A stretch of 64,000 nucleotides of DNA, taken from contig NZ_CAXREX010000182.1 of the NCBI RefSeq assembly GCF_964229645.1, positions 39,235 through 103,234 on the forward strand. Direction: 5' to 3'. The position numbers were made by a program, and so were the translations under genes. How positions within the stretch are numbered: position 1 is the stretch's first letter; every line of letters begins with the position of its first letter. This document shows, in pieces, positions 22,794-64,000 of the stretch. The notes beneath the pieces are model-generated. The model had not been told where the DNA came from. It was given only the letters and a program-made list of their open reading frames with translations, and did not search any database. Origin of the DNA: Nioella sp. Lineage in GTDB: Bacteria; Pseudomonadota; Alphaproteobacteria; Rhodobacterales; Rhodobacteraceae.

Positions 22794-23546
22794 TCACCGC
22801 GCGGTATAGCCGCCATCGACAACCATTTCGGATCCGGTCATGTAGGATGCCTCGTCGGAAGCCAGAAACAGCACCGCCCAAGCTACCTCTTCCGGCTCGG
22901 CAGGGCGCTCCATGATCGTTGTCCCAAGTATCTCCTTCTGACCGTCCGGGTCAGCCAGAATGTCTTCCGTCATCGCGGTGCGTACCACGCCCGGATGGAT
23001 CGAATTCACCCGGATGTTGAACGGCGCGTAATCCGATGCCGTCGATTTGGTAAGCAGTCGCACCGCACCTTTGGTCGCCTGATATGCCGCCGCCGAAGGC
23101 GCGCCGACCAGACCATAGATCGACGAAATATTGACGATTGCTCCAACGCCCGCGGCTTTCATATTCTCCAGCACCGCCCTGGTGCCAAGAAAAACCCCCT
23201 TTGCATTGATCGCGAAGATCTTGTCCCATTCCTCTTCCGACGTGTCCTGGACCGGCTTCAGAAAAGCGATGCCGGCATTGTTGACCAACACGTTGATGTT
23301 GCCGAATGCCTTTTGCCCTTCATCGATCGCCTTTTCCCAACTGGCGGCATCGGACACATCCAGATGCACCGCCATTGCGGTGCCCCCCGCATCCTTAATG
23401 TCCTGCACCACGGATTTTGCGCCCGTGTCGTCGACATCCGCCACGATGACCTTCGCACCTTCATCGGCAAAAATACGTGCCTCTGCGGCCCCCATGCCAT
23501 TGGCCGCACCACTGATCAGTGCAGTCTTTCCCTGGAGCCGTTTCAT
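22794..23546 (-). CDS. SDR closely resembling cyclopentanol dehydrogenase CpnA (alicyclic alcohol dehydrogenase)
   Basis: LKPVQDTSEEEWD, NISSIYGLVGAPSAAAYQATKGAVRLLTK and APFNIRVNSIHPGV match my recollection of Comamonas CpnA. GC is visibly lower than in the neighbours. Confidence 0.75.
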   Translation of the reverse strand: MKRLQGKTALISGAANGMGAAEARIFADEGAKVIVADVDDTGAKSVVQDIKDAGGTAMAVHLDVSDAASWEKAIDEGQKAFGNINVLVNNAGIAFLKPVQDTSEEEWDKIFAINAKGVFLGTRAVLENMKAAGVGAIVNISSIYGLVGAPSAAAYQATKGAVRLLTKSTASDYAPFNIRVNSIHPGVVRTAMTEDILADPDGQKEILGTTIMERPAEPEEVAWAVLFLASDEASYMTGSEMVVDGGYTAR

Positions 23547-23582
23547 GTCGATCATCCTTTAAGATTGCTGTGACGGCAGTTT

Positions 23583-23609
23583 AAAAAGGATGCGGCTTGC
23601 GTCCCGCAT
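23583..23609 (-). terminator. Rho-independent terminator between the ACAD and the CpnA-like SDR
   Basis: Minus strand: ATGCGG-gacgcaag-CCGCAT followed by cc-TTTTT. Confidence 0.5.
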
Positions 23610-23639
23610 GACAGAGATCAAGTCCCGCTCGGAAACATC

Positions 23640-24803
23640 TCAGAACGACCGCGGCATACCAAGGATATGCTCGCCGACATAAGACAGGACCAGGTTGGTC
23701 GAGATCGGTGCCACCTGATACAGCCGGGCCTCGCGGAACTTGCGCTCGACATCATATTCGCGCGCGAATCCAAAGCCACCGTGGGTCTGGAGACAGGCAT
23801 TGGCCGCTTCCCAACTGGCATCGGCGGCCAGCAGTTTGGCCATGTTCGACTGCGCCCCGCACTCCTGCCCGGCATCGAAGCGTCTGCAGGCCTCGAAGCG
23901 CATCAGGTTGGCGGCCTCGACGTTCACATAGGCCCTGGCGATGGGAAACTGCACGCCCTGGTTCTGCCCGATGGGACGGTCGAAAACGATGCGCTCACCG
24001 GCATAGGCGCGGGCCTTGTCCACGAACCAGTAGCCGTCGCCGATACATTCCGCCGCGATCAGGGTCCGCTCCGCGTTCAGACCGTCTAGGATATGATAGA
24101 AGCCACGCCCCTCGGTGCCAATCAGGTTCTCGGCGGGGATTTCGAGGTTGTCGAAGAACACTTCGTTGGTCTCATGGCCGGGCATGTTGGCGATGGGGCG
24201 GACCTCCATGCCATTGCCGATGGCCTCTTTAAGATCGACCATGAAGATCGACAGTCCCTGGGATTTCTTCTTGACTTCTTTCAGCGGCGTGGTGCGCGCC
24301 AGCAGGATCATCAGGTCCGAATGCTGGATACGGCTGATCCAGACCTTCTGACCGTTGACCACATACCGATCGCCCTTCTTGACCGCGGTGGTCTTGAGCT
24401 TGGTGGTATCGGTTCCGGTGGTCGGTTCGGTCACGGCCATGGATTGCAGGCGCAAGGCGCCGCTGGCGATGCCGGGCAGGTATTTCTGCTTCTGCGCGTC
24501 CGAGCCGTGCCGCAGGAGCGTGCCCATGTTGTACATCTGTCCGTGGAAGTGGCCGGCATTGGCGCCACAACGGTTTGCCTCTTCCATGATGATCGAGGCC
24601 TCGGTCAGGCCGAGGCCCGAGCCGCCGAATTCCTCGGGGATCATCGCCGCCAGCCAGCCTTCGCGGGTCAGTGCATCGACGAATTCTTCGGGATAGGTTT
24701 CATCCTCGCCGAACTTGCGATGATATTCCGGCGGGAACTGCGCGCACAGCGCACGAAGCGCGTCGCGCAGATCGTTATGGGTGTCGGGTGCCGAAGTCTG
24801 CAT
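23640..24803 (-). CDS. Acyl-CoA dehydrogenase (family often found in itaconate/methylsuccinate clusters)
   Basis: HGQMYNMGTLLRHGS, LRLQSMAVTEPTTGTDTT and YQVAPISTNL motifs. The subfamily assignment is from memory. Confidence 0.88.
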   Translation of the reverse strand: MQTSAPDTHNDLRDALRALCAQFPPEYHRKFGEDETYPEEFVDALTREGWLAAMIPEEFGGSGLGLTEASIIMEEANRCGANAGHFHGQMYNMGTLLRHGSDAQKQKYLPGIASGALRLQSMAVTEPTTGTDTTKLKTTAVKKGDRYVVNGQKVWISRIQHSDLMILLARTTPLKEVKKKSQGLSIFMVDLKEAIGNGMEVRPIANMPGHETNEVFFDNLEIPAENLIGTEGRGFYHILDGLNAERTLIAAECIGDGYWFVDKARAYAGERIVFDRPIGQNQGVQFPIARAYVNVEAANLMRFEACRRFDAGQECGAQSNMAKLLAADASWEAANACLQTHGGFGFAREYDVERKFREARLYQVAPISTNLVLSYVGEHILGMPRSF

Positions 24804-24806
24804 CGT

Positions 24807-25601
24807 TCAAGCCGCTCCCGGGCCGGAGGTTTCGAGGATTTCCTCTTCGGCGCGCTGCCACAATTCAAAAGAAATCGGATTCTCGCTTTCCTCAAGGATA
24901 TGACCGACCAGCCCGATGGCGCGTGCCATGACGCCAAAGCCGCGCACGATCTTCCAGGGGAAGCCGAATTCGCAGCAGATCGCACCGATCGCACCTGTGG
25001 CATTGATCGGCAGCATCTTGCCGGACTTTTCCTCGGCGACGGTCTGAATTTTCTGGATCAGTTCGATGTATTCGCCGGATTTTCCATTCTCGGCCGCGAT
25101 CTGGAACAGACGTGGCGCGCGCGGGTCAACCGGCTTGTGCACCGGATGGCCCAGCCCCGGAACGATGGCCTTTCTGGCGCGGAATTTTTCGACCGTCTCC
25201 AGCGCGATTGCGTCCAGATCGGCGCCAGTGCCCAGCTTGTCCTCGGGCAGTGCCTCGTAAAGCATCTTCGACGCGCCTTCCATCGAGCCGACAAACACCG
25301 TGCCCAGCCCGCAGAGCCCGGCCGCGACCGCCGCCTGAAGCGATTCCGGCGCGCCCATATAGGTCATCCGCGCCGCCAGGGCCGATGGCGTGATGCCATG
25401 TTCGACAAGGGTGATGATGATGGCGTTGAAGACGCGGCTTTCCTCGAGCGTGGCCTTGCGGCCCGTCAATTGCAGAAAGGCCAGATCGCCCAGGTTCATA
25501 TGGCCGAGGATCTCGTTCGGCAGGTCGAGCCCGCGCACGCAAATCTTGTCGGGGGTGCTCCAGCCGATCTTCGAGCTGATTTTTTCCTTGCGCTTGCCCA
25601 T
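24807..25601 (-). CDS. Citrate-synthase-fold 'citryl-CoA lyase'-like protein
   Basis: EHGITPSALAARMT and PGLGHPVHK motifs, PINATG in place of NVD. ATG 25601 overlaps the upstream stop (TAATG). Confidence 0.8.
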   Translation of the reverse strand: MGKRKEKISSKIGWSTPDKICVRGLDLPNEILGHMNLGDLAFLQLTGRKATLEESRVFNAIIITLVEHGITPSALAARMTYMGAPESLQAAVAAGLCGLGTVFVGSMEGASKMLYEALPEDKLGTGADLDAIALETVEKFRARKAIVPGLGHPVHKPVDPRAPRLFQIAAENGKSGEYIELIQKIQTVAEEKSGKMLPINATGAIGAICCEFGFPWKIVRGFGVMARAIGLVGHILEESENPISFELWQRAEEEILETSGPGAA

Positions 25602-26521
25602 TAGACTGGATCCCATGAAAAGACATCCGCCGAAACTTCGAGCGGTGTGAACTGCGGTTTGAGCGCGGGAATGGCGCGCTCGGCGATTTCATCGGCGGTC
25701 CAGCCGTCACCGGAGTGGACGGACCGGAGCGGGCGGGGCTGGTTGAACAGGAATATCTCGTTCATCCGCACTGCAAAGATTTGCCCCGACACATCCGCCG
25801 CGCGGTCGCTCATCAGGTAGCAAGCCATCGGCGCGACCTTGGCGGGGGTCATCTTCTTGACCTTCTCGACCCGCGTCTTCTGTTCCTCGGTGTCGGTCTT
25901 GATCGACGAGATCATCCGGCTCCAGGCGAAGGGCGCGATGCAGTTCGAACGGACGTTCCAGCGCTTGAGATCGAGCGCCACCGATTTCGAAAAGGCCGCG
26001 ATGCCCAGCTTGGCGGCGGAATAATTCGCCTGTGCGAAATTGCCGATCAGCCCCGAGGTCGAGGTCATGTGCACCAGCGCGCCGCTTTCCTGCTCGCGGA
26101 AATAGTCGGCGGCGGCGCGGCTTGTGTTGAAGGCACCGTAAAGATGGACCTTCACCACCGCGTCGAAATCCTCATAGGTCATCTTGTGGAAGAACCCGTC
26201 GCGCAGGATACCGGCGTTGTTCACGACGGCATCAATGCGGCCAAATTCCTTTACCCCGGCTTCGATCATCGCGCGCGCGGCGTCGGGGTCGGTGACGCTG
26301 CCGCCATCGGCAATCGCCTCGCCCCCAGCGGCCTTGATTTCCTCAACCACCTTCTGCGCTGCGGTTTCCGTCTGCCCGGTGCCCTTCAGCGATGCGCCCA
26401 GATCGTTGACCACCACGGCGGCGCCTTCTGACGCGGCCATCAGCGCGATATCGCGACCGATTCCGCCACCCGCCCCGGTGACCAGAACCACCTTTCCGTC
26501 AAGTGCCCTTGCCATATTCAT
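25601..26521 (-). CDS. SDR (MFE-2-like hydroxyacyl-CoA dehydrogenase family)
   Basis: TGAGGGIG, VVVNDLG, NNAGILRD, VHLYGAF and NYSAAK motifs. Confidence 0.88.
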   Translation of the reverse strand: MNMARALDGKVVLVTGAGGGIGRDIALMAASEGAAVVVNDLGASLKGTGQTETAAQKVVEEIKAAGGEAIADGGSVTDPDAARAMIEAGVKEFGRIDAVVNNAGILRDGFFHKMTYEDFDAVVKVHLYGAFNTSRAAADYFREQESGALVHMTSTSGLIGNFAQANYSAAKLGIAAFSKSVALDLKRWNVRSNCIAPFAWSRMISSIKTDTEEQKTRVEKVKKMTPAKVAPMACYLMSDRAADVSGQIFAVRMNEIFLFNQPRPLRSVHSGDGWTADEIAERAIPALKPQFTPLEVSADVFSWDPV

Positions 26522-26527: not shown

Positions 26528-27487
26528 TCAGCCTGCCTTGCGATATTTGTCGAGTCCGCCTGTGTGCATGACCCGGCCCATGAGCGGCGCGCCGATGATC
26601 TCTTCCGCCTTGAGGGCCGCCGCGATCAGCTTGTCCAGATCGATGCCGGTCTCGATGCCCAACTCGTGACACAGGAACACGGCGTCCTCGGTGCAGACAT
26701 TGCCCGCGGCGCGCGCGTGGCCGTGGCCCGCGAAAGGACAGCCGCCCAGCCCGGCGACAGAGCTTTCGAACATGTCCACGCCCATCGACAGCGCGGCATG
26801 GACATTGGCGATGCCCAGCCCGCGCGTGTCGTGGATATGCATGCCGATGCGGGCCTCCGGTGCCAGGTCGCGCAGCGCGCCGATCATCCGCTTGACAGCT
26901 TCGGGGTTGCCCCAGCCCATCGTGTCGGCGACCACGAGGATCGGCACCGGAATCTCCTCTTCCTCGCAAAGTTGCAGGATGAAGCGGAAATCGTCCAGGA
27001 TGCGCTCTTGCGGGATGGGGCCTTCGAAATTGCAGCCGAAGGCCGTCATCACATAGGCGGCGTCCACGGTGTAGCCTTCTTCCTTGTAAAGCCGGACCCA
27101 GTCGCGCTGTTTCTCGCGCATCTCGGCGGAGGAACAATTGTTGTTGGATTGCGCAAAGGCCTCGGAGGGGTAGAACAGCAGGCGCGGGTCGATATCGACC
27201 TCATGCGCGGTCAGCGCCTTGCGAAACCCCTTGTCGTTCAGCCAGAGCGAGGTGTAGTTGACGCCCGGCTTGCGCTTGATCCGCTGGAACAGCTCGCCGG
27301 TGTCGGCCATCTGCGGCACGTATTTCGGGCTGACGAAGCTGCCGACCTGAATGCGTTTCAAACCGGTCTCGCTGAGCATGTCGATCAACTCGATCCGCTC
27401 CTCGATCGGATAGATCTTCTTTTCGATCTGGAAGCCCTCGCGCGGGCCTTCCTCTCGGAATTCGACGAATTTGGGAAAGTCGCTCAT
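26528..27487 (-). CDS. HMG-CoA lyase-like DRE-TIM enzyme
   Basis: GPREGFQ (canonical GPRDGLQ), GSFVSPKYVPQMAD, HIHDTRG, GLGGCPFA and GNVCTED motifs. Confidence 0.85.
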   Translation of the reverse strand: MSDFPKFVEFREEGPREGFQIEKKIYPIEERIELIDMLSETGLKRIQVGSFVSPKYVPQMADTGELFQRIKRKPGVNYTSLWLNDKGFRKALTAHEVDIDPRLLFYPSEAFAQSNNNCSSAEMREKQRDWVRLYKEEGYTVDAAYVMTAFGCNFEGPIPQERILDDFRFILQLCEEEEIPVPILVVADTMGWGNPEAVKRMIGALRDLAPEARIGMHIHDTRGLGIANVHAALSMGVDMFESSVAGLGGCPFAGHGHARAAGNVCTEDAVFLCHELGIETGIDLDKLIAAALKAEEIIGAPLMGRVMHTGGLDKYRKAG

Positions 27488-27491
27488 CTCA

Positions 27492-29498
27492 TCACTCCTC
27501 GGGCGGCAGTATCTCGGCGATGACCTGGCCACGATCGACCATGTCTCCGTTCGAGACGGATATGTTGCTGGTGATCCCGGTCGCGGCCGCGCGGATCGAG
27601 ATTTCGAGTTTCATGGATTCCATGACCGCAATCACGTCGCCTTCGGTGACGGGCTGACCCTCGGTCACCTTGATCTCGACGATCATCCCGGTCAGCGGAG
27701 AAGCCACGGCACGGTCCGCCGCAGCATCGCCGCCGGCGTAGTCCAGAGGCGCGGCCGGATGGAAGATCAGGCGGCCCTCGGGCGTGTCCAGCTCGATCAC
27801 GCCCGCATGAAGCCGCGCGTCGATGAGGTGGACCGTGTCGCCCTGGCTCACACGCCAGCGGCCCGGCGTGGTTTCACGCACCGACAGGGTCGCCGCATCG
27901 GCGTTTTCCGCCAGGACGGTGTATCGGTCTCCGTGCTTGACAGGTCCGACGAGCAATTCCTCGGAGGCCCCGGCGGAATCGGTCAGCGTCACAGGCTGTC
28001 CGGCTTCGATCCGATCGCCCCCCAATCCAAGCCGCCAGCCGGTGAAGGTGTCGCGGTTGGTCCAGGGATCGGCATCGGTATCGCGGCGCGGCGTGGCCAC
28101 GAAAAGGATGGCGGCGGCGGCCTTCCACAACTCGGGGCGGGCAAGGGGGCCTGCCTGTGTCAGCGCGTCGAGCCTGCCGTCGATCCAGCGTGTGTGAACC
28201 TGCATCCGCTCGAATTCGGGGTCGCGCGCCAGCGCCGTCAGAAAGGCGCGGTTGGTCTGCACGCCTTCCACTGCGACGTGATCCAGGGCTGTCGCCAGCC
28301 GCGCCAGGGCGGTCTCCCGGTCCGGCGCGTGAACGATCAGCTTGGCGATCATGGGGTCATAGAAGGGGGTGACCGCGTCGCCCTCTTCGACACCGCTGTC
28401 GATGCGCAGACCCTCGGGCAGGCTGAGCGTGGTCAGGGTGCCGGTCGAGGGGGCGAATTGCATCGCCGGGTCTTCGGCGTAAAGCCGCGCCTCGACCGCG
28501 TGGCCGTTGATCGCCAGATCCTCCTGCACCAGCCCGAGGCCCGCACCTTCCGCAATGCGCAGGTGCAGCGCCACCAGATCCAGCCCGGTGATCGCCTCGG
28601 TGACGGGGTGTTCGACCTGAATGCGGGGGTTCACTTCGAGGAAAAAGTAGTCCTCGCCCGCCACCAGAAACTCCACCGTGCCCAGACCGCGATAGTCGAG
28701 CGTTTCGCCCAGGCGCACCGCGTCCTGCGCGATCTCGTCCAGAAGGGCGCGGGGCAGGCCCCAGGCCGGGGCCTCCTCGATGACCTTCTGGTGACGGCGC
28801 TGAAGCGTGCAGTCGCGTTCGAACAGGTGCACCACATGCCCCTTGCCGTCGCCCGCGATCTGCACTTCGACATGGCGCGCCTCGGGCAGGAACCGCTCCA
28901 GCAGCAGCCCTTCGGAGCCGAAGGTGGATTTTGCTTCGCGCAGCGCGCCTTCGATGTCCTCGACAAGCGTGGTCTCGTCGGTCACAAGCCGCTGGCCGCG
29001 CCCGCCGCCGCCGCCGACCGCCTTGAGCAGGACGGGCAGGCCCATTTCGCGCACCTCGTCGGCAATCTGCTGCGGATCGGACCACGCGCCTTCGGCGCCC
29101 GAGATCACAGGGACGCCAGCGGCCACGGCCGCCGCCTTGGCGCTGGCCTTGTCGCCGAACCGTTCGAGCGTGTCCGGCGTCGGCCCCATGAAGATCATCC
29201 CGGCGGCCTCGACCGCACGGGCGAAATCCGGGTTTTCCGCCAGAAAGCCGTATCCGGGATGGATCGCATCCGCGCCGACCGATTTCGCGGCGGCGATCAC
29301 CGCGTCGATCTTCAGGTAGCTCTCGGAGGCCGGTCCGGCACCGATGCAGACGGAATGCCCGATCTCGCGCACATGAAGCGCATTGGCATCGGCCTCGGAG
29401 TGCACGCCGACCGGGGTGATACCGCTGGCCCGCGCGGTACGCGCGATCCGGCAGGCAATTTCGCCGCGATTGGCGATGAGAAGCGTTTTGATTTTCAT
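27492..29498 (-). CDS. Acyl-CoA carboxylase alpha subunit (biotin carboxylase + BCCP), module 1
   Basis: LIANRGEIA, HPGYGFLAENP, RDCTLQRRHQKVIEEAP, EVNPRIQVEHPVTE and biotinyl ESMKL motifs. Start reassigned to ATG 29498. Confidence 0.93.
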   Translation of the reverse strand: MKIKTLLIANRGEIACRIARTARASGITPVGVHSEADANALHVREIGHSVCIGAGPASESYLKIDAVIAAAKSVGADAIHPGYGFLAENPDFARAVEAAGMIFMGPTPDTLERFGDKASAKAAAVAAGVPVISGAEGAWSDPQQIADEVREMGLPVLLKAVGGGGGRGQRLVTDETTLVEDIEGALREAKSTFGSEGLLLERFLPEARHVEVQIAGDGKGHVVHLFERDCTLQRRHQKVIEEAPAWGLPRALLDEIAQDAVRLGETLDYRGLGTVEFLVAGEDYFFLEVNPRIQVEHPVTEAITGLDLVALHLRIAEGAGLGLVQEDLAINGHAVEARLYAEDPAMQFAPSTGTLTTLSLPEGLRIDSGVEEGDAVTPFYDPMIAKLIVHAPDRETALARLATALDHVAVEGVQTNRAFLTALARDPEFERMQVHTRWIDGRLDALTQAGPLARPELWKAAAAILFVATPRRDTDADPWTNRDTFTGWRLGLGGDRIEAGQPVTLTDSAGASEELLVGPVKHGDRYTVLAENADAATLSVRETTPGRWRVSQGDTVHLIDARLHAGVIELDTPEGRLIFHPAAPLDYAGGDAAADRAVASPLTGMIVEIKVTEGQPVTEGDVIAVMESMKLEISIRAAATGITSNISVSNGDMVDRGQVIAEILPPEE

Positions 29499-29508: not shown

Positions 29509-31116
29509 TCACATCCTGAACACGCCGAAACTGGTTTCGACCTTTGGCCTGCGCGAGGTCGCATCCAGCATCAGCGCCATGACATCGCGGGTCTCACAGG
29601 GCTCGATCACGCTGTCGATCCAGAGGTTCGAGGCGAAATTGTAGGCCCCCTGGAAATCCTCGTATTCCTTGCGGATCGGGGCCTTGAAGGCGTCCTCCTC
29701 CTCGGGCGTCCAGCTCTTGCCTTCGCGCTCGTTGATCTGGGCGCGGACCTGCGCCAGCACGCTGGCGGCCTGTTCGGGGCCCATGATGGCGGCGCGGCCC
29801 GTGGGCCAGGCAAAGGTCGCATCCGGCTGGAACGGGCGGCCCAGCATGGCCAGATATCCCGCGCCGTAGGAGCCGCCGGTGATGATGGTGAACTTGGGCA
29901 CCCGGGCCGAAGACATGGCGGTAATCATCTTGGCCCCGGCCTTGGCGATGCCCATCTGCTCGACCTCGCGACCGACCATGAAGCCGTTTACATCGGCCAG
30001 AAACAGCAGCGGAATGTCGCGCTGGACGCAGAGATTGATGAAATGGGTGGCCTTCAGCGCGGCCTCGACGAAGAGCACGCCGGTATTGGCGAGAATACCG
30101 ACCTCATGGCCGTGGATGCGGCCCCAGCCGGTCATGATGGTGTCGCCATAGAGCGGTTTGAACTCGTGAAAATCGCTGCCGTCCACCAGCCGCGCGACGA
30201 TCTCGCGGTTGTCTGTCGGCACCCTGGGATCGCGGCTGACAATGCCGTAGATTTCCTCGACCGGATAGGCCGGCGGGCGCGGCGCGGCGGGCGTCTTGCG
30301 GGGCCGGGGCTTTTCGCCCAGATGGCTGACGATCTCGCGGGTGATGGCCAGGGCGTGGGCGTCATCCTCGGCCAGATGGTCGGTCACGCCCGACACCGAC
30401 GAATGCATCTTGCCGCCGCCCAGTTCTTCGGCTTCGACCTTCTCGCCGGTCGCCGCGAAGGTCAGTTCCGGGCCGCCCAGATACATGAAGCCCTGACCGC
30501 GCACGATCACCACCTCGTCGCAGAGCGCGGGGATATAGGCACCACCCGCCGTGCAGGGGCCCATGACCACGGCGATCTGCGGCACGCCGTCGCCCGACAT
30601 ACCGACCTGCTGATGGAAGATCGAACCGAACTGGCCCTCGTCGGGAAAGATATTCTCCTGATCGGGCAGGAACGCGCCGCCGGAATCGACCAGCGTGATC
30701 ACCGGAAGACGGTTCTTCCAGGCGATCTTCTGGGCGCGCACATGCTTGCGCGAGGTCATGCCGAAATAGGTGCCGCCCTTCACCGTGGCATCGTTGGCGA
30801 TGATCATGCACTGGCGGCCCTCGATCATGCCGATGCCGGTGATGATGCCGGCCCCCGGCGGGACGCCGTCATATTTGTTCAGCCCGGCAAGCTCGCCCAG
30901 TTCCAGAAATGGCGTGCCAAGGTCGATCAGACGCTCGACCCGTTCGCGCGGCAGGATCTTGCCTTTCGAAAGGTGCCGGTCGCGCGCCTTTTCCGGGCCG
31001 CCGACACGTTGTTGCAGGCGAAGCGCATGCAGTTCACCGATCTTTTCGCGATACCGCGCGTCGTTTTCCCGGAAGTCGTCGGACCCGGTGTCGAGAAGGG
31101 ATTTCATTCTTGTCAT
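29509..31116 (-). CDS. Acyl-CoA carboxylase carboxyltransferase (MCC-beta-like), module 1
   Basis: ANDATVKGGTY, VDSGGAFLPDQ, CTAGGAY and GGSYGAG motifs. Confidence 0.93.
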   Translation of the reverse strand: MTRMKSLLDTGSDDFRENDARYREKIGELHALRLQQRVGGPEKARDRHLSKGKILPRERVERLIDLGTPFLELGELAGLNKYDGVPPGAGIITGIGMIEGRQCMIIANDATVKGGTYFGMTSRKHVRAQKIAWKNRLPVITLVDSGGAFLPDQENIFPDEGQFGSIFHQQVGMSGDGVPQIAVVMGPCTAGGAYIPALCDEVVIVRGQGFMYLGGPELTFAATGEKVEAEELGGGKMHSSVSGVTDHLAEDDAHALAITREIVSHLGEKPRPRKTPAAPRPPAYPVEEIYGIVSRDPRVPTDNREIVARLVDGSDFHEFKPLYGDTIMTGWGRIHGHEVGILANTGVLFVEAALKATHFINLCVQRDIPLLFLADVNGFMVGREVEQMGIAKAGAKMITAMSSARVPKFTIITGGSYGAGYLAMLGRPFQPDATFAWPTGRAAIMGPEQAASVLAQVRAQINEREGKSWTPEEEDAFKAPIRKEYEDFQGAYNFASNLWIDSVIEPCETRDVMALMLDATSRRPKVETSFGVFRM

Positions 31117-35716: not shown

Positions 35717-35753
35717 ATACAGATCAAGGGAATTTGTGAGGAGGATGTTCACG

Positions 35754-54956: not shown

Positions 54957-54958
54957 CC

Positions 54959-56585: not shown

Positions 56586-57197
56586 TCAGGTCGTCTGCTG
56601 CCGCGCCTCCTGAATGGACACCACATCAGAGGCCGCCATCTCGGGCCGGTCGGCCTCGACCGCGTTCAGCGGGTCGACGGGTTTCAAACCTGCCAGACAG
56701 TCGCGCGCCAGTTGCTGATATTCGGCGGTTCCACGGGTTTTCCACGCGACTTCCTTCTCGGTGACCTCGCGGATCACCTTTGCCGGCGCTCCGACCACCA
56801 TCGAACGCGGCGGGATCACCGTTTCCCCCCGCACAAACGCCTGCGCGCCGACAATCGATTCCGCGCCAAGCTCCACGCCGTCCATGATGACGGCATTCAT
56901 GCCCACCAAAGCATTCCGGCCGACGGTGCACCCGTGCAGAATCGCGCCATGGCCGATATGACCGTTGGTTTCGACCACCGCATCGCGGCCCGGGAAGGAA
57001 TGGAGGATGCAATTGTCCTGAACATTGGCCCCGTCACCGATCACGATCCTGCCGAAATCGCCCCGCAGGCTTGCGCCGGGTCCGATATAGCACCCCTGAC
57101 CGAGTATGACATTTCCGATCAGCACCGCCTGGGGATGAACGAATGTCCCCTCGGGCACAACGGGAACGAAGCCTTTGAATTGATAGCAATTGGCCAT
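56586..57197 (-). CDS. paaY: PaaY/CaiE-like gamma-carbonic-anhydrase-fold protein
   Basis: Hexapeptide repeats, [28 protein letters not shown] and [13 protein letters not shown] motifs. Confidence 0.8.
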
Positions 57198-57335: not shown

Positions 57336-57351
57336 TCAAACACATGTTAGA
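57336..57351. promoter_or_regulatory. Operator TCAAACA-CA-TGTTAGA (paaY promoter)
   Basis: 57336-57355 is identical to 50276-50295 (20 nt). It lies between minus-strand -35 TTGCCG (57357-57362) and -10 TTGAAT (57334-57339), 17-bp spacer. Confidence 0.8.
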
Positions 57352-57384: not shown

Positions 57385-57429
57385 TTGACACTGTCTGGCG
57401 GCAGGATGTAAAATCTAACAAGTGGTAGA
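57385..57429 (+). promoter_or_regulatory. Sigma70-type promoter TTGACA-N18-TAAAAT with operator TCTAACA-AG-TGGTAGA (57414-57429) over the predicted start site
   Basis: TTGACA at 57385-57390 and TAAAAT at 57409-57414. The 1-mismatch palindrome follows immediately. Confidence 0.75.
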
Positions 57430-57483
57430 AAATGGACCGGCGCGCGACTCATGTCGCCCGGCTCGAACGCGGGAGCGAGAGAA

Positions 57484-58668
57484 ATGTCAGAGAAAGCCCA
57501 TGTCGTCGGCGTCGGGATGGTGCCGTTCCAGAAGCCGGGAAAATCCGACAGCTATGATGTCATGGCAATTGCGGCCACCCGCTCCGCGCTGGCCGACGCG
57601 GGGCTGGATTATGGCAAGATCGAGCAGGCCTATGTGGGCTATGTCTACGGCGACAGCACCTGCGGCCAGCGCGCCCTGTACCAGGTCGGCATGACCGGCA
57701 TTCCGGTCGTGAACGTGAACAACAACTGCTCGACCGGGTCATCCGCCCTGTTCCTGGCCCGCCAGGCCGTCGAAAGCGGCGCGGTGGACTGCGCTCTGGC
57801 GCTTGGATTCGAACAGATGCAGCCCGGCGCCATCGGCGCGATGTTCCATGACCGAGTCAGCCCGTTTGCGGCGTTTGACGAAGAAACCGACGACCTCGTG
57901 GGCAATCCGGAGATCCCGCTGGCGCTTCGCTATTTCGGCGGCGCCGGCAAGGCGCATATGGAGGAGTTCGGCACACCGCTGGAAACCTTCGCGAAAATCC
58001 GCGCCAAGGCCAGCCGCCATGCGGCCAAAAACCCGGTGGCCCTGTTCCGGCAGGAGGTAACACCCGAAGATGTCATGGCCGCGCAGGTCGTCTGGCCCGG
58101 CGTGATGACCAAGCTGATGGCCTGCCCGCCGACCTGCGGCGCGGCTGCGGCAATCGTCTGTTCCAAGGAATTTGCCGACAAGCACGGCCTCGACAGCTCG
58201 GTGCGGATCGCGGCTCAGGCCATGACGACGGACGGCCCGGAAACCTTCGATGCGCACGACATGCGCGAGGTGGTCGGCTTCTCGATGGCCAAGCGCGCCG
58301 CCGATCAGGTCTATGAGGCCGCGGGCATCGGGCCGGACGACGTGGACGTGATCGAACTGCACGATTGCTTTGCCCATAACGAGCTTATCACCTACGAGGC
58401 GCTTGGCCTGTGCGGACGCGGCGAGGCGGCGAAATTCGTCGACGACGGCGACAACACCTATGGCGGGAAATACGTGACAAACCCCTCCGGTGGTCTGTTG
58501 TCCAAGGGCCATCCGCTCGGAGCAACGGGCCTTGCGCAATGCACCGAGCTTGTCCAGCAACTGCGCGGCCAGGCCGATGCGCGTCAGGTCGACGGCGCGC
58601 GTCTGGCGCTTCAGCACAATCTGGGCCTCGGCGGGGCCTGTGTGACCACGCTTTATGAAAAAGTCTGA
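57484..58668 (+). CDS. SCP-x-type thiolase (lipid-transfer protein family)
   Basis: NVNNNCSTGS, LALGFEQM, ELHDCFAHNE, SGGLLSKGHPLGATG and QHNLGLGG motifs. Confidence 0.92.
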   Translation: MSEKAHVVGVGMVPFQKPGKSDSYDVMAIAATRSALADAGLDYGKIEQAYVGYVYGDSTCGQRALYQVGMTGIPVVNVNNNCSTGSSALFLARQAVESGAVDCALALGFEQMQPGAIGAMFHDRVSPFAAFDEETDDLVGNPEIPLALRYFGGAGKAHMEEFGTPLETFAKIRAKASRHAAKNPVALFRQEVTPEDVMAAQVVWPGVMTKLMACPPTCGAAAAIVCSKEFADKHGLDSSVRIAAQAMTTDGPETFDAHDMREVVGFSMAKRAADQVYEAAGIGPDDVDVIELHDCFAHNELITYEALGLCGRGEAAKFVDDGDNTYGGKYVTNPSGGLLSKGHPLGATGLAQCTELVQQLRGQADARQVDGARLALQHNLGLGGACVTTLYEKV

Positions 58669-58692: not shown

Positions 58693-59523
58693 ATGACCGA
58701 CAAACTCGACGGGCGCGTGGCGCTGGTCTCCGGCTCGGGCCGGGGCATCGGGCGGGAGATCGCGCTCAAGCTGGCCTCGGAAGGGGCACGGATCGTGGTC
58801 AACGATCTGGATGCCGACCCGGCCAATGAAACCGCCGAGGCGATCCGTGCCGCCGGCGGCGAAGCCGAGGTCTGCGCCGGCAGCGTGACCGAGGACGGCT
58901 TTGCCGAACGGTTCATCAGGACCGGCGTCGACAGCTTCGGCGGGCTGGACATCATCGTGAACAACGCCGGCTATACCTGGGACAGCGTCGTTCAGAAGAT
59001 GACCGACGAGCAATGGCAGGCGATCATCGACGTGCACCTGACCGCGCCCTTCAGGATCCTGCGCGCCGCCCAGCCGGTGATCAGCGCCAGAGCCAAGGAA
59101 GAAGCCGCCGCCGGGCAAGAGGTGTTCCGCAAGGTGGTCAACATCTCGTCCATCGCGGGCACCGGCGGCAATGCGGGCCAGATCAACTATGCCGCCGCCA
59201 AGGCCGGTATCCTCGGGGTCACCCGGACGATGGCCAAGGAATGGGGCCGTTACAAGGTCAACGTCAATGCCGTGGCCTTCGGGCCGATCCGCACCCGCCT
59301 GACCGAAGGCAGCGCCGATGGCGACAGCACGATCAAGGTCGAGGAAAAGGAAATCAAGGTCGGCGTGAACCCCGATCTGCTGTCCCAGATGGAACGGATG
59401 ATCCCGCTGGGCCGGGTCGGCACACCGCAAGAGGCCGCCGGCGCGGTCTATCTGTTCTGCACCCCTGAATCGAACTTCATCTCGGGCCAGCACATCATCT
59501 GCGGCGGCGGCTTCGTGATCTAG
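58693..59523 (+). CDS. SDR (3-oxoacyl reductase-like)
   Basis: SGSGRGIG, NNAGYTWD and NYAAAKAG motifs. Confidence 0.9.
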   Translation: MTDKLDGRVALVSGSGRGIGREIALKLASEGARIVVNDLDADPANETAEAIRAAGGEAEVCAGSVTEDGFAERFIRTGVDSFGGLDIIVNNAGYTWDSVVQKMTDEQWQAIIDVHLTAPFRILRAAQPVISARAKEEAAAGQEVFRKVVNISSIAGTGGNAGQINYAAAKAGILGVTRTMAKEWGRYKVNVNAVAFGPIRTRLTEGSADGDSTIKVEEKEIKVGVNPDLLSQMERMIPLGRVGTPQEAAGAVYLFCTPESNFISGQHIICGGGFVI

Positions 59524-59574
59524 CACCGGCCGCCCTGGCCGCGTCTTCGGGTCCTGGCTGGCAACTGACATTTC

Positions 59575-59599
59575 CGGGCAGCCGCATGACGGTTGCCCG
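59575..59599. other. GC-rich intergenic hairpin
   Basis: CGGGCAGCCG-catga-CGGTTGCCCG, no U-tract. Possible mRNA stability or processing element. Confidence 0.35.
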
Positions 59600-59622
59600 A
59601 CCTGTAACAGGGTATCCGATCC

Positions 59623-61221
59623 ATGGCGCGTCTCGAAACAACGGTACTCACAGCATCCGAGAGCTACGCCCGCAATCATGCAGCGCAAAGCGACCGCGTC
59701 GAGACCCTGCGCGCGCGGATCGCCGAGGCCACCTCGGGCGGGCGCCCCGACATGGTCGAACGTCACCGCAAGCGCGGCAAGCTTCTGGTCCGCGACCGGA
59801 TCGACCTGCTGGTGGACCCCGGCACCGCGTTTCTGGAGCTGTCCTCGCTCGCAGCCTATGGCCAATACGGCGGCGAGGTTCCCGGCTCCGGGATCGTCAC
59901 CGGCATCGGTATGGTCCATGGGCTGCCCTGCATGGTGATCGCCAATGATGCCACCGTAAAGGGCGGCTCGTTCTACCATGAGACCGTGCAGAAACACATC
60001 CGCGGCCAGGAAATCGCGGCGGAAAACCGGCTGCCCTGCCTCTATCTGGTGGATTGCGGCGGGGCCTATCTGCCCGAACAGGACCGGGTCTTTCCCGGCG
60101 CCCGGCATTTCGGCAATTCCTTCTATCGCCAGACCAACATGTCGGCCAGCGGCTTGCCGCAGATCTCGGCCGTCTTCGGCGGCTGCACGGCGGGCGGGGC
60201 CTATATCCCCGCGCTGTCGGACGAGGTCATCATGGTGCGGGGCAACGCCCGCATCCATCTGGGCGGTCCGTCGATCGTCAAGGTGGCGATCAACGAAGAG
60301 GTCGATGGCGAAACGCTGGGCGGGGCCGAGATGCATGCGCGCGTCTCGGGCGTCTGCGACCATCTGGCCGAGGACGAATACCATGCCCTGGCGCTGATGC
60401 GCGACATCGTCGCCGAGCTTGGCCAATCGCGTCCGATGCAGCCCGACACGGCCCCCGAAGGGCCCTTGCATGACCCGTCCGAATTGCTCGGCATCATCAG
60501 CGCCGACCGCAAGGAACCCTACGACATGCGCGAGGTTCTGCTGCGCATGATCGACGCCGGCGAATTCCGCGAATTCAAGCCCGGCTGGGGCGAAACGCTG
60601 GTCTGCGGCACCGCGCGCATCCACGGCTATCGCGTGGGAATCCTCGCCAATAACGGCGCGCTCTTGTCCGAGAGTTCGCTGAAGGGTGCGCAGTTCGTGT
60701 CGATGTGCGACCAGCGGAACATCCCGCTTCTGTTCCTGCACAACATATCGGGCTTCATGGTCGGGACGGAAGCGGAGCGCGGCGGCATCGCCAAGGACAG
60801 CGCCAAGCTGGTTTATGCCATGTCGGTGGCCAAGGTGCCGCGCCTGTCCGTCCTTCTGGGCGGCTCTTACGGGGCGGGCAATTACGGCATGTGCGGGCGC
60901 GGGTTCGCGCCGAATTTCCTGTTTGCCTGGCCCACGGCGGAACTGGCCACCATGTCCGCCGACATCGCCACCAACGTGATGCTGGAGCTGCGCCGCCAGA
61001 AGGGTGGCGAGCTTGCGAAGCTGGAGGCCGACCTGGCGCAGATCGAGGCGCAGGTGCGCGCCCAGTACGGCGAACAGTCCGACCCCTATTATGCCACCTC
61101 GCGGCTCTGGGACGACGGGCTGATCGAACCAGGCCAGACCCGCGATATTCTGGGCCTGTGCCTGGCCATCGTCTCATCGGTGCCCGGGGCAGGGCGCCAC
61201 ACGCCGGTTTTCAGAATGTGA
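59623..61221 (+). CDS. Acyl-CoA carboxylase carboxyltransferase (MCC-beta/LiuB-like), module 3
   Basis: ANDATVKGG, KHIRGQEIAAENRLP, GCTAGGAY, GSYGAGNYGMCGR and HTPVFRM motifs. Confidence 0.93.
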   Translation: MARLETTVLTASESYARNHAAQSDRVETLRARIAEATSGGRPDMVERHRKRGKLLVRDRIDLLVDPGTAFLELSSLAAYGQYGGEVPGSGIVTGIGMVHGLPCMVIANDATVKGGSFYHETVQKHIRGQEIAAENRLPCLYLVDCGGAYLPEQDRVFPGARHFGNSFYRQTNMSASGLPQISAVFGGCTAGGAYIPALSDEVIMVRGNARIHLGGPSIVKVAINEEVDGETLGGAEMHARVSGVCDHLAEDEYHALALMRDIVAELGQSRPMQPDTAPEGPLHDPSELLGIISADRKEPYDMREVLLRMIDAGEFREFKPGWGETLVCGTARIHGYRVGILANNGALLSESSLKGAQFVSMCDQRNIPLLFLHNISGFMVGTEAERGGIAKDSAKLVYAMSVAKVPRLSVLLGGSYGAGNYGMCGRGFAPNFLFAWPTAELATMSADIATNVMLELRRQKGGELAKLEADLAQIEAQVRAQYGEQSDPYYATSRLWDDGLIEPGQTRDILGLCLAIVSSVPGAGRHTPVFRM

Positions 61222-61231
61222 GGCCAATACC

Positions 61232-62023
61232 ATGACGACCTATGAAACCATTCTGCTTGAGACCGACGCACGAGGCGTCGCCACCGTCACCCTGAACCGA
61301 CCCGACAAGCACAATGCGCTGAACGGCGGCTTGATCGCCGAGTTGACGGACGCCGCCGAAAAACTGGCAGCCGACGACAAGGTGCGCATCGTGGTTCTCA
61401 CCGGCACCGGCAAGAGCTTCTGCGCCGGGGGGGATTTCAACTGGTTCTCGTCGAATATCGACAAGTCCCGCGCCGAGCGGGTCGATCAGAGCGCCACGCT
61501 GGCGCATTTGCTGCGCCGCCTCGACACGCTGCCCAAACCGCTGATCGGGCGGATCAACGGTCCGGCCTATGGCGGCGGGGTCGGCATGATTTCGGTCTGC
61601 GACTACACGATCGGCGCCGAAGGGTCGCGCTTTGGCCTGACCGAGGTCAAACTGGGCCTCCTGCCGGCCAATATCTCGCCCTATGTCGTGGCCCGCATCG
61701 GCAAGGAGCATTCGCGCGAAACCATGCTGTCGGGGGCGCTGTTCGACAGCGCGCGTGCCGAACGGATCGGTCTCTTGACCGAGGTCGTCTCCGCCGATGA
61801 TCTGGACGCGGCCATCGAGCGCGTCGTGCAGGATCACCTTCAGGCCGCGCCGGGGGCCGTGGCCGACACCAAGGCGCTGATCGCCTATGTCGCGGCGCAC
61901 GATCTGGAAACCAACATGATCTACACCGCCGACCGTCTGGCCGACGCCTGGGAAACCGACGAAGGGATCGAAGGCATCGACAGCTTCCTGAAGAAACGCA
62001 CGCCCTCATGGCGGGTGAAATGA
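61232..62023 (+). CDS. Methylglutaconyl-CoA hydratase (LiuC)-like crotonase
   Basis: LNRPDKHNA, YGGGVGMISVCD, TEVKLGLLPANISPYV and FLKKRTPSW motifs. Confidence 0.85.
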   Translation: MTTYETILLETDARGVATVTLNRPDKHNALNGGLIAELTDAAEKLAADDKVRIVVLTGTGKSFCAGGDFNWFSSNIDKSRAERVDQSATLAHLLRRLDTLPKPLIGRINGPAYGGGVGMISVCDYTIGAEGSRFGLTEVKLGLLPANISPYVVARIGKEHSRETMLSGALFDSARAERIGLLTEVVSADDLDAAIERVVQDHLQAAPGAVADTKALIAYVAAHDLETNMIYTADRLADAWETDEGIEGIDSFLKKRTPSWRVK

Positions 62024-64000
62024 GCTTTGCCCGCGTCCTGATCGCCAACCGCGGCGAAATCGCCCGGCGCATCCAGCGCGGGTGCCGCAAGCTTGGGCTG
62101 GAAACGGTCGCGGTCTTTTCCAAGGCCGACCGCGACGCGCCCTTCGTGGCAGAGGCCGATCACGCCGTCTGCATCGGCGGGGCCGCGCCCTCGGAAAGTT
62201 ATCTGAACGTCGGCGCCATTCTGGATGCCGCGCGCAGGACCGGCGCGGGCGCGGTGCATCCCGGCTATGGCTTCCTGTCCGAAAACGCCGGTTTCGCCGG
62301 GGCGGTCCAGGCTGCGGGCCTCGTGTTCATCGGGCCCGAACCCGGCGCGATTGCCATGATGGGATCGAAGATCGAGGCCAAGTCCGCCGCCGAGGCCGCG
62401 GGCGTCCCCGTGCTGCCCGGATATCGCGGCGAAGATCAGTCCGACGCGCGACTGCTCGAAGAGGCGCGGGCGCTTGGCACGCCGTTTCTGGTCAAGGCCA
62501 GCGCAGGCGGCGGCGGGCGCGGCATGCGCCTTGTCACCGATCTGGCCGACGCGCCCGAGGCCATCGCCTCTGCCCGGTCCGAGGCGAAAGGCGCGTTCGG
62601 CGATGCGGCGGTGTTCCTCGAACGCTACGCCCCGCGTGCGCGTCACGTCGAGGTGCAGGTGCTGGGCGACAGTCACGGCACGGTGCTGCATCTAGGGGAT
62701 CGCGACTGTTCGTTGCAACGCAACCACCAGAAGCTGATCGAGGAGGCACCCGCCGCCGATCTGCCCGAGGCCCTGCGCGATGACATGCTGTCGGCGGCGG
62801 TGCGGCTGGCGCAGTCCATAGGGTATCGCTCGGCAGGGACGGTGGAATACCTCTATGACCCGGCGCGCGGCGAATATTACTTCCTCGAAATGAACACCCG
62901 CCTTCAGGTCGAACACCCCGTGACCGAGGCCATCACCGGGATCGACCTTGTCGAATGGCAGTTGCGCATTGCCCGGGGCGAGACATTGGCGCTGACGCAA
63001 TCCGATGTCCAGTTCGACGGACACGCCATCGAGGTCCGCATCGCCGCCGAGAACCCGGCCGAGAATTTCCGCCCCGAGACAGGCCGGATCACCCTCTGGG
63101 CCCCGCCCGCTGGCGTGCGGCTGGATAGCGGCGTCGCGGCAGGCTCGGTCGTCGGCCACCATTACGATTCCATGCTGGCCAAGCTGATCGTCCATGCGCC
63201 CGACCGGGCCGGGGCGATCCGGCAGGCCGTGGCCGCGATTGATGCCTTCGCCGTCGGCGGCGTCGGTCTGAACCTGTCCTATCAGCGCGCCTTGCTGACA
63301 CATGCGGATTTTCAGGCGTTCCGGCACCATACCTCGGGCCTGCCCGACATGTTCCCCGAGGGCTGGGCGCAACCCACTCCCGACGCGCGCGACACGGGCC
63401 TTGCCGTCATGGCGCTGCATCTGCATCTGGCCCCGGCGGGCGCGTCGCCCTGGGAAAGCCTCGGGTCATGGCGGCTTACCGCCCCCGCGGGGCGGCCCGG
63501 TGCTGCGTCCTACTGGGCCACATCCGCGGATGAGCCGATCCGCATGTCCGATGTCCCGGGAGCGCTCGCCGCCGTACTGCCGGACGGCCAGAATATCGAA
63601 GCCGAGGCTCCCGCCCTGACCGGCGACCGCCTGAGCGGACGCATCGACGGCGTTCCTTTCTCGCGCGTCGCCCACATCGAACGCGCCGGTCATCATTGGC
63701 GGGTGCATCTACAGACCCCTGCGGGAATGACTTTGACAGAGCTGCGCACTCTGGAAGATCGGCACCTTGCCCGCGCCAGCGTCGTTGCAGGCGGCGCCGA
63801 CCTGCTGACGGCCCCGATGCCGGGCGCCGTTGCCGAGCTGCGCGTCGCGCCTGGCGACCGCGTCGCCGCCGGTGATACCCTGGTGGTGCTGGAAGCCATG
63901 AAGCTCCTGCAAAGCCTGCCCGCCCCGGTCGCGGGCGTGGTCACCGAGATTTTTTGCGCACCGGGCGACACCGTCGCCGGGCACGCCCCACTCGTCAAAC
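62020..64000 (+). CDS. Acyl-CoA carboxylase alpha subunit (biotin carboxylase + BCCP), module 3; runs off the window
   Basis: Not in the ORF track because it has no stop in the window. ATG 62020 overlaps TGA: MSFARVLIANRGEIA, HPGYGFLSENA, EMNTRLQVEHPVTE. APMPG (63811) is in the same frame, followed by LEAMK. Confidence 0.92.
   Translation, partial: MSFARVLIANRGEIARRIQRGCRKLGLETVAVFSKADRDAPFVAEADHAVCIGGAAPSESYLNVGAILDAARRTGAGAVHPGYGFLSENAGFAGAVQAAGLVFIGPEPGAIAMMGSKIEAKSAAEAAGVPVLPGYRGEDQSDARLLEEARALGTPFLVKASAGGGGRGMRLVTDLADAPEAIASARSEAKGAFGDAAVFLERYAPRARHVEVQVLGDSHGTVLHLGDRDCSLQRNHQKLIEEAPAADLPEALRDDMLSAAVRLAQSIGYRSAGTVEYLYDPARGEYYFLEMNTRLQVEHPVTEAITGIDLVEWQLRIARGETLALTQSDVQFDGHAIEVRIAAENPAENFRPETGRITLWAPPAGVRLDSGVAAGSVVGHHYDSMLAKLIVHAPDRAGAIRQAVAAIDAFAVGGVGLNLSYQRALLTHADFQAFRHHTSGLPDMFPEGWAQPTPDARDTGLAVMALHLHLAPAGASPWESLGSWRLTAPAGRPGAASYWATSADEPIRMSDVPGALAAVLPDGQNIEAEAPALTGDRLSGRIDGVPFSRVAHIERAGHHWRVHLQTPAGMTLTELRTLEDRHLARASVVAGGADLLTAPMPGAVAELRVAPGDRVAAGDTLVVLEAMKLLQSLPAPVAGVVTEIFCAPGDTVAGHAPLVK

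Follow-up and report, generated by a model that had tools for sequence, protein, structure and literature searches.

A stretch of 64,000 nucleotides from Nioella sp. (contig NZ_CAXREX010000182.1, positions 39,235 to 103,234), referred to here in its full length as the window, carries a conserved island of acyl-CoA catabolic genes from position 23640 to beyond its end at 64000 (~40 kb), which we interpret, with a probability of about 0.62, as one mobile TetR-controlled regulon for the degradation of methyl-branched (isoprenoid-type), and possibly alicyclic, carboxylic acids as CoA thioesters. Judged by sequence, the island would join a second type of AtuA-linked, open-pocket carboxylase, one with split subunits, to two new clades resembling 3-methylcrotonyl-CoA carboxylase (MCC) as well as to a branched-chain beta-oxidation set, making it a variant of atu/liu-type catabolism rather than a new kind of system. 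A first-pass annotation of this DNA, made without database searches, had proposed an undescribed catabolic island with three complete biotin-dependent carboxylases. All three were found (A, C and D; the alpha subunit of D runs past 64000), and no paper on the cluster was retrieved by literature searches for AtuA/DUF1446 or geranyl-CoA carboxylase with Roseobacter, or for phytol with Rhodobacteraceae, so the island appears to be undescribed. Coordinates are given in Table 1, and modules A, C and D are named after their carboxylases.

In searches of the PDB the three carboxyltransferases (CTs) match MCCbeta-type structures at 566 to 630 bits, the Pseudomonas geranyl-CoA carboxylase (GCC) beta subunit at 420 to 430 bits and PCCbeta at no more than 290 bits; the corresponding values for CT-C are 566 to 579, 420 (5ikl) and at most 267 bits. 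All three belong to the MCC/GCC lineage, which carboxylates the gamma carbon of 3-methyl-2-enoyl-CoAs, and not to the PCC/ACC lineage. They are nevertheless 44 to 47% identical to one another and 49 to 53% identical to the MCCbeta of Pseudomonas and human, a pair that shares 65%. The CT phylogeny suggested by the first-pass annotation was run as an identity matrix and a neighbour-joining tree, which resolved five clades: classical AtuC/GCCbeta, MCC, CT-A, CT-D, and CT-C with its split-type relatives, placing the three island CTs in separate clades. The mean identity of CT-C to classical AtuC-type CTs is 39%, versus 49% to MCC.

The size of the acyl group accepted by such enzymes is gated by a single residue: Phe191 of MCCbeta blocks geranyl-CoA, GCCbeta has Gly instead, and an exchange of this residue also exchanges the preference (Jurado et al., 2015; PMC4673880). 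For the numbering, full-length human MCCbeta served as alignment reference (F191 in "DHFGR", A218 in "CTAGG"). CT-C has Gly165 at the Phe191 position, as do five of five orthologues. The Phe gate is retained in CT-A ("GQFGSIF"; 3/3 orthologues and 118/120 members of the CT-A family) and in CT-D ("RHFGNSF"; 4/4 orthologues, and 9/9 across the survey of AtuA loci). In that survey of 80 AtuA loci, every one of the 62 AtuA-linked CTs has a small gate residue (Gly 53, Ala 9, Phe 0), Gly or Ala also being found at the gate of all 18 split-type CTs, and the true MCCbeta in the survey has Phe. CT-C does not have the three-residue deletion that precedes the gate in classical AtuC types and aligns without gaps to MCCbeta ("FPDRYLGGRVF"). 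Sequence thus describes CT-C as a putative geranyl-CoA-type, open-gate carboxylase that nonetheless lies outside the AtuC family.

The gene context of CT-C resembles the Pseudomonas atu cluster in having AtuA, an adjacent gamma-carboxylating CT with a small gate residue, an AtuB-like short-chain dehydrogenase/reductase (SDR), acyl-CoA dehydrogenases (ACADs), a crotonase and a divergent TetR-type regulator. The differences are several: CT-C stands outside the AtuC clade with a loop of MCC length; the alpha subunit is split into a biotin carboxylase (BC) and a biotin carboxyl carrier protein (BCCP), unlike the AtuF type, which is a single alpha subunit with BC, BT and BCCP domains; the order is enoyl-CoA hydratase (ECH)-AtuA-BC-BCCP-CT, and the ACAD and SDR genes diverge from it; the neighbouring hydratase is not AtuE-like; and the regulon is larger. 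The BC/BCCP split is kept in all orthologous loci, and Pfam gave no BT match in carboxylase C (the only BT match among the carboxylases, in alpha-D, is itself below threshold). AtuA loci were collected with an alignment of eight sequences, one of 37 sequences being too diverse. The island AtuA, in which both the AtuA and the AtuA ferredoxin-like domain score above the gathering threshold, is 53 to 59% identical to AtuA of classical atu loci (53 to 55% to those of Pseudomonas), and no relative was found in the PDB by sequence. Orthologues at least 78% identical occur across several orders. ECH-C2 is kept in split-type AtuA loci and is absent in Nisaea; the ACAD-C1a type is retained at 60 to 64% identity beside split-type AtuA loci of other orders. 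The SDR at 46938 to 47792, called AtuB-like in the first-pass annotation, is indeed the island protein nearest to Pseudomonas AtuB (~39%). A third AtuA context, in the order CT, fused alpha, ECH and AtuA, was seen at four loci (L049, L053, L063 and L018), where the CT gate is also Gly.

The proposal of a single regulon was upheld by a shared operator, in our view the strongest support short of RNA data, although it is sequence support. A 16-bp palindrome, TCTAACAnnTGTTAGA, occupies all four divergent promoter gaps of the island (five sites, O1 to O5), six matches with up to two mismatches being present in the window versus 0.00 expected. Two operators overlap promoter-like hexamers, O3 lying inside TTGACC-18-GAAAAT and O5 abutting the -10 element of a strong promoter-like site at 57385 to 57414, as expected for the site of a repressor. 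The palindrome is kept at orthologous gaps in 16 related loci, among them those of Roseovarius indicus, Sulfitobacter alexandrii and Nisaea and nine genome loci. None of the 74 loci with a classical atu cluster, module C or module A by itself has it; one operator is shared by every promoter gap only in loci where the modules occur together. The palindrome is likely bound by the fused double TetR encoded beside O2, a position that this gene keeps in all island loci. In this protein two complete TetR units are joined covalently in tandem, in effect as a single-chain "dimer". In S. alexandrii an additional site lies upstream of a neighbouring ABC-transporter operon.

The description of the region as an island also holds, with a shifted left edge. 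The interval from 23640 to 64000 is syntenic at 84 to 87% nucleotide identity (~85% overall) on plasmids of at least eight genera (Roseovarius, Roseibium, Sulfitobacter, Pseudosulfitobacter, Phaeobacter, Paracoccus, Sagittula and Marinovum), many of them typed as conjugative. Megablast alignments to most plasmids begin at 23640, and not at 22794, so that the SDR at 22794 to 23555, counted by the first-pass annotation as a CpnA-like member, lies beyond the edge of the widely conserved island. When one genome per species was scanned, the matching arrangement appeared in Tritonibacter horizontis, Oceanicola, Tropicibacter, Pseudooceanicola, Aquicoccus, Heliomarina, Ruegeria and Phaeobacter, and in a Nisaea genome the island is chromosomal. 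The island end adjoins a VirB type IV secretion system in S. alexandrii and insertion sequence elements in R. indicus. Past the position equivalent to 64000, both of these relatives carry the rest of alpha-D followed by an ACAD, a BioY biotin transporter and a metallo-beta-lactamase (MBL) hydrolase, and the island therefore extends past the window end. A BioY gene at the end of the island fits the cofactor demand of three biotin enzymes; it closes the island in relatives (L001 8597-9163; L004 20123-20689). Compared with the R. indicus plasmid, window positions 1 to 24 kb are 88 to 99% identical and the island only ~78 to 90%, the identity dropping from ~95% to ~85% at ~23600 to 25000, near the ACAD at 23640 to 24803. 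This interval is a recombination break at which the island allele departs from an otherwise near-identical plasmid backbone, and the island has therefore been exchanged as a block.

The island encodes three carboxylases, two intact CoA ligases, several ACADs, crotonases and SDRs, four thioesterase-type proteins and two kinds of dienoyl-CoA reductase (FadH type and SDR type). The AtuA, HMG-CoA-lyase-family, AliB- and BadH-like, FadH, SCPx-type thiolase and ligase genes named by the first-pass annotation are all present by NCBIfam/Pfam. In the pathway that we propose, acids would be activated by the PaaK-like and Acs-like ligases and shortened by ACADs, crotonases, SDRs and the SCPx-type thiolase, an enzyme suited to 2-methyl-branched 3-oxoacyl-CoA, with double bonds handled by FadH and the SDR-type dienoyl-CoA reductase. 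Beta-methyl blocks would be removed by dehydrogenation to 3-methyl-2-enoyl-CoA, gamma-carboxylation, hydration and HMG-CoA-lyase-like cleavage; the citryl-CoA-lyase-like enzyme, whose top PDB match is the Hydrogenobacter citryl-CoA lyase (6hxp, 117 bits), perhaps also cleaves C-C bonds. Long intermediates may be the substrates of CT-C with AtuA, and short ones those of CT-A and CT-D; the PaaI and PaaY proteins may free CoA from dead-end thioesters, and the likely repressor would be the FadR/PsrA-like double TetR, with an acyl-CoA or a fatty acid as the releasing ligand. Peroxisomal beta-oxidation of pristanic acid uses an SCPx thiolase, D-bifunctional protein and DECR2. The island resembles that system at the family level only, in its SCPx-type thiolase, SDR dehydrogenases and SDR resembling a dienoyl reductase (in S. 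alexandrii a MaoC hydratase also adjoins the island), and differs from it in being initiated by CoA ligases and in removing beta-methyl groups by carboxylation and lyase cleavage instead of alpha-oxidation.

Taken as a whole, the first-pass interpretation is partly supported, its terpenoid or naphthenic substrate class being something that we infer. Because island hosts originate from algal cultures and oil-degrading consortia, the leading candidates, on this circumstantial evidence, are isoprenoid acids from phytol-type algal lipids or branched and naphthenic components of oil. As a lead only, the Pseudomonas atuA promoter responds to naphthenic acids (PMC11495318). The exact window sequence is present in marine and estuary metagenomes, and isolate sequencing runs containing it are DNA (uniform depth, 0 mismatches).

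Several points weigh against the single-regulon interpretation or limit it. The idea that each carboxylase handles a different chain length is consistent with the open-pocket Gly of CT-C, but CT-A and CT-D both keep Phe, and a chain-length series is not demonstrated. The AliB- and BadH-like enzymes point to alicyclic substrates, yet a BadI-type hydrolase is absent among the four crotonases. The double TetR is only a candidate for the palindrome-binding protein, and in relatives CT-D is preceded by a second TetR, so that different modules may be meant for different substrates. The predicted model of AtuA, built on an alignment of close homologues only, has a mean pLDDT of 53.5, too poor to interpret. 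Runs labelled as metatranscriptomes (X25 to X27 from seawater, X28 from crude oil) gave short contigs of low, even depth across all modules, or partial matches, which could be DNA or paralogues and are not separable from RNA. Finally, the split arrangement (SDR and ACAD divergent from ECH-AtuA-BC-BCCP-CT) is widespread as module C alone, in Nevskia, Variovorax, Mesorhizobium, Rhodospirillales, Xanthobacteraceae and Steroidobacteraceae; and module A, whose ACAD, ECH, CT, alpha subunit and HMG-CoA-lyase-type enzyme form a complete set for beta-methyl removal, recurs alone in three genera: its neighbours are a Baeyer-Villiger monooxygenase, an esterase and an SDR in Sinimarinibacterium, FadH and a TetR in Noviherbaspirillum, and the Acs-like ligase in Sneathiella.

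These last occurrences favour the main rival, namely that the island is no single pathway but a mosaic of three or more self-contained modules, in which A and B (ali/bad-like alicyclic enzymes with their own beta-methyl unit), C (a second-type atu system for acyclic terpenoid acids) and D (a liu-like system for short branched acids) travel together on a mobile element and share, or have converged on, one regulator. The separate TetR of relatives, with its own palindrome before CT-D, fits this arrangement, as does a decayed copy retaining only modules C and D. Nevertheless, a common operator in every promoter gap is confined to loci with combined modules, and the whole set is co-inherited, with gene order kept from genus to genus and in a chromosomal copy. 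Three carboxylases stand against a single SCPx-type thiolase and a single HMG-CoA-lyase-type enzyme, so the modules appear interdependent. We consider a mosaic rather unlikely.

Ring cleavage of the anaerobic or monoterpene type, with the carboxylases acting downstream on the opened ring, is improbable. The Rhodopseudomonas palustris ali/bad genes and the Castellaniella defragrans mrc cluster share with the island an AliB-like ACAD, a BadH-like SDR, crotonases, a FadH-type reductase, CoA ligases and a citrate-lyase-like gene, and the mrc cluster comprises BadK-, BadH- and BadI-type enzymes, an (R)-hydratase, a "citrate lyase" and ACADs, but no carboxylase (PMC4109377). TIGR03207 and TIGR03206 are by far the best families for the AliB-like ACAD and the BadH-like SDR, and both equivalog cut-offs are narrowly missed (Table 1). 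These two enzymes may act on bulky branched or cyclic acyl-CoAs. No BadI/MrcE-type 2-oxocyclohexanecarboxyl-CoA hydrolase was found among the four crotonases: TIGR03210 is not among the best 25 NCBIfam families of any of them, and any BadI-family score would lie below 125 to 161 bits. The alicyclic module claimed earlier is incomplete, with AliB- and BadH-like enzymes below cut-off and no such ring hydrolase; lacking BadI, a complete ali/bad or mrc pathway was rejected, and the three biotin carboxylases have no counterpart in either system.

That the carboxylases are redundant MCCs, giving extra capacity for leucine or isovalerate beside ordinary fatty-acid beta-oxidation, is very improbable and was rejected: the MCCbeta-type PDB matches, the Phe gates of CT-A and CT-D, the liu-like order of module D (CT, LiuC-like ECH, alpha, ACAD) and the many database copies automatically named methylcrotonoyl-CoA carboxylase speak for it, but the CTs form separate clades only ~50% identical to true MCC, the true MCCbeta beside isovaleryl-CoA dehydrogenase (IVD) on Rhizobium plasmids is at most 55% identical to CT-A, CT-C has the GCC-type Gly and adjoins AtuA, the ACAD that follows alpha-D, known from its R. 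indicus orthologue and lying beyond the window end, is closer to LCAD (298 bits) than to IVD (264 bits), and dienoyl-CoA reductases, an SCPx thiolase and AliB- and BadH-like enzymes play no part in leucine catabolism. Resemblance to liu clusters is seen in module D (Phe-gate CT, LiuC/AtuE-like hydratase, fused alpha, then ACAD) and in module A (ACAD, ECH, Phe-gate CT, alpha, HMG-CoA-lyase-family enzyme). Module D differs from liu in its LCAD-like ACAD and missing lyase, and liu has no equivalent of the PaaK-like ligase, AliB-like ACAD and citryl-CoA-lyase-like protein of module A. Neither unit pairs a methylglutaconyl-CoA-hydratase-type crotonase with an HMG-CoA lyase: module D has a LiuC/AtuE-like ECH and no lyase, and module A has the lyase-family enzyme and only a generic ECH. 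No IVD was found adjoining carboxylases A or D, the ACADs of module A being AliB-like or generic. Of the two hydratases called LiuC/AtuE-like in the first-pass annotation, ECH-D merits the name, although it scores only 225 bits against the gamma-carboxygeranoyl-CoA hydratase family (cut-off 426), and ECH-C2 is a generic crotonase.

Returning to the single-regulon interpretation, isoprenoid lipids (the phytol chain of chlorophyll, carotenoid fragments, pristane, phytane and naphthenic acids) make up a large pool of carbon in marine and oil-polluted waters, and to our knowledge the genes by which marine Alphaproteobacteria pass beta-methyl blocks are essentially uncharted. The three CTs fit neither MCC nor GCC, the two gamma-carboxylase types characterised so far, and the automatic methylcrotonoyl-CoA carboxylase label hides at least three distinct enzyme clades. 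The strict link of AtuA to open-pocket carboxylases narrows the long-open question of the role of AtuA. The island itself is widespread, mobile and tightly organised, on plasmids from algal- and oil-associated isolates. A bolder and tentative proposal, which we think somewhat unlikely, is that the three-subunit enzyme (BC, BCCP, CT) is a hitherto unrecognised second form of long-chain 3-methyl-enoyl-CoA (geranyl-CoA-type) carboxylase that arose within the MCC-like branch by independent opening of the pocket (Phe to Gly/Ala), with AtuA as dedicated partner. Joined under one operator with the two other new gamma-carboxylase clades, it would give marine bacteria of the Roseobacter group and their relatives a complete mobile route for the mineralisation of isoprenoid lipids (phytol/phytanic-type acids from algae, branched or naphthenic acids from oil).

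Genes were selected from their GC3 frame bias (GC by codon position), the window having a G+C content of ~64% at which many long open reading frames (ORFs) are spurious, and were then named with NCBIfam and Pfam.

Table 1. Island features in window coordinates. Scores are in bits, with family cut-offs after < or >; L numbers denote related loci.
Feature	Position	Strand	Basis and remarks
ACAD	23640..24803	-	NCBIfam ACAD matches; last gene of operon A, island left edge
Citrate-synthase-fold, citryl-CoA-lyase-like protein; candidate second C-C lyase	24807..25616	-	NF004868 350 > 193; PF00285 C-terminal domain
SDR, PRK07791-like; candidate 3-hydroxyacyl-CoA dehydrogenase	25601..26521	-	NF005861 272 < 373; Pfam adh_short
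HMG-CoA lyase family enzyme	26528..27532	-	NF004283 267.7 > 246
Carboxylase A alpha, fused BC + BCCP	27492..29498	-	Biotin carboxylase and BCCP matches
CT-A, carboxylase A carboxyltransferase	29509..31116	-	Own clade; Phe gate; PDB MCCbeta-type 589-630, GCCbeta 422, PCCbeta <=281
PaaK-like (short ANL) acyl-CoA ligase	31113..32504	-	NF041878 276 < 700; TIGR02155 234 < 646; AMP-binding + AMP-binding_C_2
ACAD	32531..33691	-	NCBIfam
ECH-A, enoyl-CoA hydratase, generic crotonase	33701..34480	-	BadI not in top 25 families
AliB-like ACAD	34477..35658	-	TIGR03207 cyclohexanecarboxyl-CoA dehydrogenase 529.4, just < 575; first gene of operon A
Operator O1, TCTAACAAATGTTAGA	35701..35716	.	Between AliB-like operon A and FadH; kept in R. 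indicus (L002 8757) and S. alexandrii (L003 32946)
FadH/OYE-type Fe-S flavoenzyme (2,4-dienoyl-CoA reductase-like)	35745..37787	+	Relatives annotated NADPH-dependent 2,4-dienoyl-CoA reductase
AMP-binding ligase remnant, residues 4-61	37821..37994	+	tblastn 64% identity over 58 aa; ligase intact in relatives after FadH
WrbA/flavodoxin-like protein	38252..38827	+	90% identical to R. indicus flavodoxin family protein
PaaI-type hotdog thioesterase	38922..39377	-	NCBIfam/Pfam; end of operon B
AraC-type helix-turn-helix domain protein	39387..40136	-	PF12833 33.7, at threshold; conserved in relatives
NmrA-like NAD(P)-binding protein	40105..40959	-	Pfam NmrA + NAD_binding_10
Acs-like acyl-CoA synthetase, 645 aa	40956..42893	-	NF001208 482 < 657
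BadH-like SDR	43006..43794	-	TIGR03206 370.8 < 431; first gene of operon B
Operator O2, TCTAACATTTGTTAGA	43834..43849	.	Between BadH-like operon B and double TetR; kept in L001 31327, L003 45950, L009-L017 at ~2668
Fused double TetR, candidate island repressor	43894..45228	+	Pfam TetR_N x2 + TetR_C_24 x2; FadR/PsrA-like NCBIfam matches
Two PaaI-type thioesterases	45247..45648 and 45680..46129	-	NCBIfam
ECH-C1, enoyl-CoA hydratase	46142..46954	-	PRK09245 350.7 vs 354
SDR, DECR-like	46938..47792	-	NF005752 204; 2,4-dienoyl-CoA reductase NF005811 185
Two ACADs	47803..49014 and 49017..50231	-	NCBIfam; start of operon C1
Operator O3, TCAAACACATGTTAGA	50276..50291	.	Between ACAD operon and ECH-AtuA-BC-BCCP-CT operon; kept in L001 24893, L004 4384, L005 9868, L006 9943, L008-L017 at ~9102
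ECH-C2, enoyl-CoA hydratase, generic crotonase upstream of AtuA	50365..51150	+	NCBIfam
AtuA family protein, 599 aa	51173..52972	+	PF07287 478 (cut-off 22.8); PF23544 94.8 (cut-off 27)
Carboxylase C BC, stand-alone, 494 aa	52969..54453	+	Aligns to alpha-A residues 19-486
Carboxylase C BCCP, stand-alone, 171 aa	54441..54956	+	NCBIfam/Pfam
CT-C, carboxylase C carboxyltransferase	54953..56566	+	Gly165 at MCC Phe191 gate; clade apart from AtuC
PaaY/CaiE-like hexapeptide protein	56586..57197	-	TIGR02287 292 < 320
Operators O4 and O5	57336..57351 and 57414..57429	.	Between PaaY and thiolase-SDR-CT-ECH-alpha operon; kept in L001 17693, L004 11584, L005 20497 and 20580
SCPx-type thiolase ("lipid-transfer protein")	57451..58668	+	NF006102 690.9 > 436
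SDR-D	58693..59523	+	NCBIfam/Pfam
Scar of ~730-bp deletion	59524..59622	.	Alignment with relatives
CT-D, carboxylase D carboxyltransferase	59623..61221	+	Phe gate; own clade
ECH-D, LiuC/AtuE-like enoyl-CoA hydratase	61232..62023	+	NF005675 (PRK07468) 378 > 350; AtuE 4zu2 139
Carboxylase D alpha (BC, weak BT, BCCP)	62020->64000	+	Cut by window end

The window copy of the island has suffered two losses. The single TetR gene that stands with a palindrome before CT-D in all relatives examined was taken, together with its own palindrome CTAACAGGCGTTAG, by the clean deletion listed in Table 1 (compare L004 13694-14507), and the CT-D, ECH-D and alpha-D genes are fused in the window to the thiolase-SDR transcript. 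Each half of the double TetR is 35 to 38% identical to this single TetR of relatives. The third ligase that stands after FadH in relatives has also been lost; ORF 37827-38255, which has no Pfam or NCBIfam match, was rejected as a real gene and is a remnant of the deleted ligase. Orthologues of the lyase-family gene at 26528 to 27532 on other plasmids carry the annotation hydroxymethylglutaryl-CoA lyase. The decaying copy of modules C and D mentioned above lies among transposase genes on Bradyrhizobium-like contigs of metagenome-assembled genomes (L006/L007), with SDR-D in three fragments. The stand-alone module-A-type cluster of Sinimarinibacterium flocculans (L088 4505-7930) is divergent from its Baeyer-Villiger monooxygenase, esterase and SDR genes, a set that suggests oxidation of cyclic or methyl ketones and hints at ketone precursors (isoprenoid ketones, cycloalkanones) for the CT-A clade.

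To the left of the island, positions 1 to 22620 hold another cluster for acyl-CoA catabolism, which adjoins the island only in the R. indicus plasmid and lies ~20 kb away from it on other plasmids. It encodes a TRAP transporter, a FabG-like SDR, ACADs, an AMP-binding ligase, MaoC, ADP-forming acyl-CoA synthetases, another citryl-CoA-lyase-like protein, family III CoA-transferases and a Liv-type ABC transporter. The sixth palindrome-like site, TCTAACAGTTGACAGA (1325 to 1340, two mismatches), lies here between a partial acetate-CoA-ligase-family gene and an IclR-type regulator gene, and may either be an outlier of the regulon or have no connection with it.

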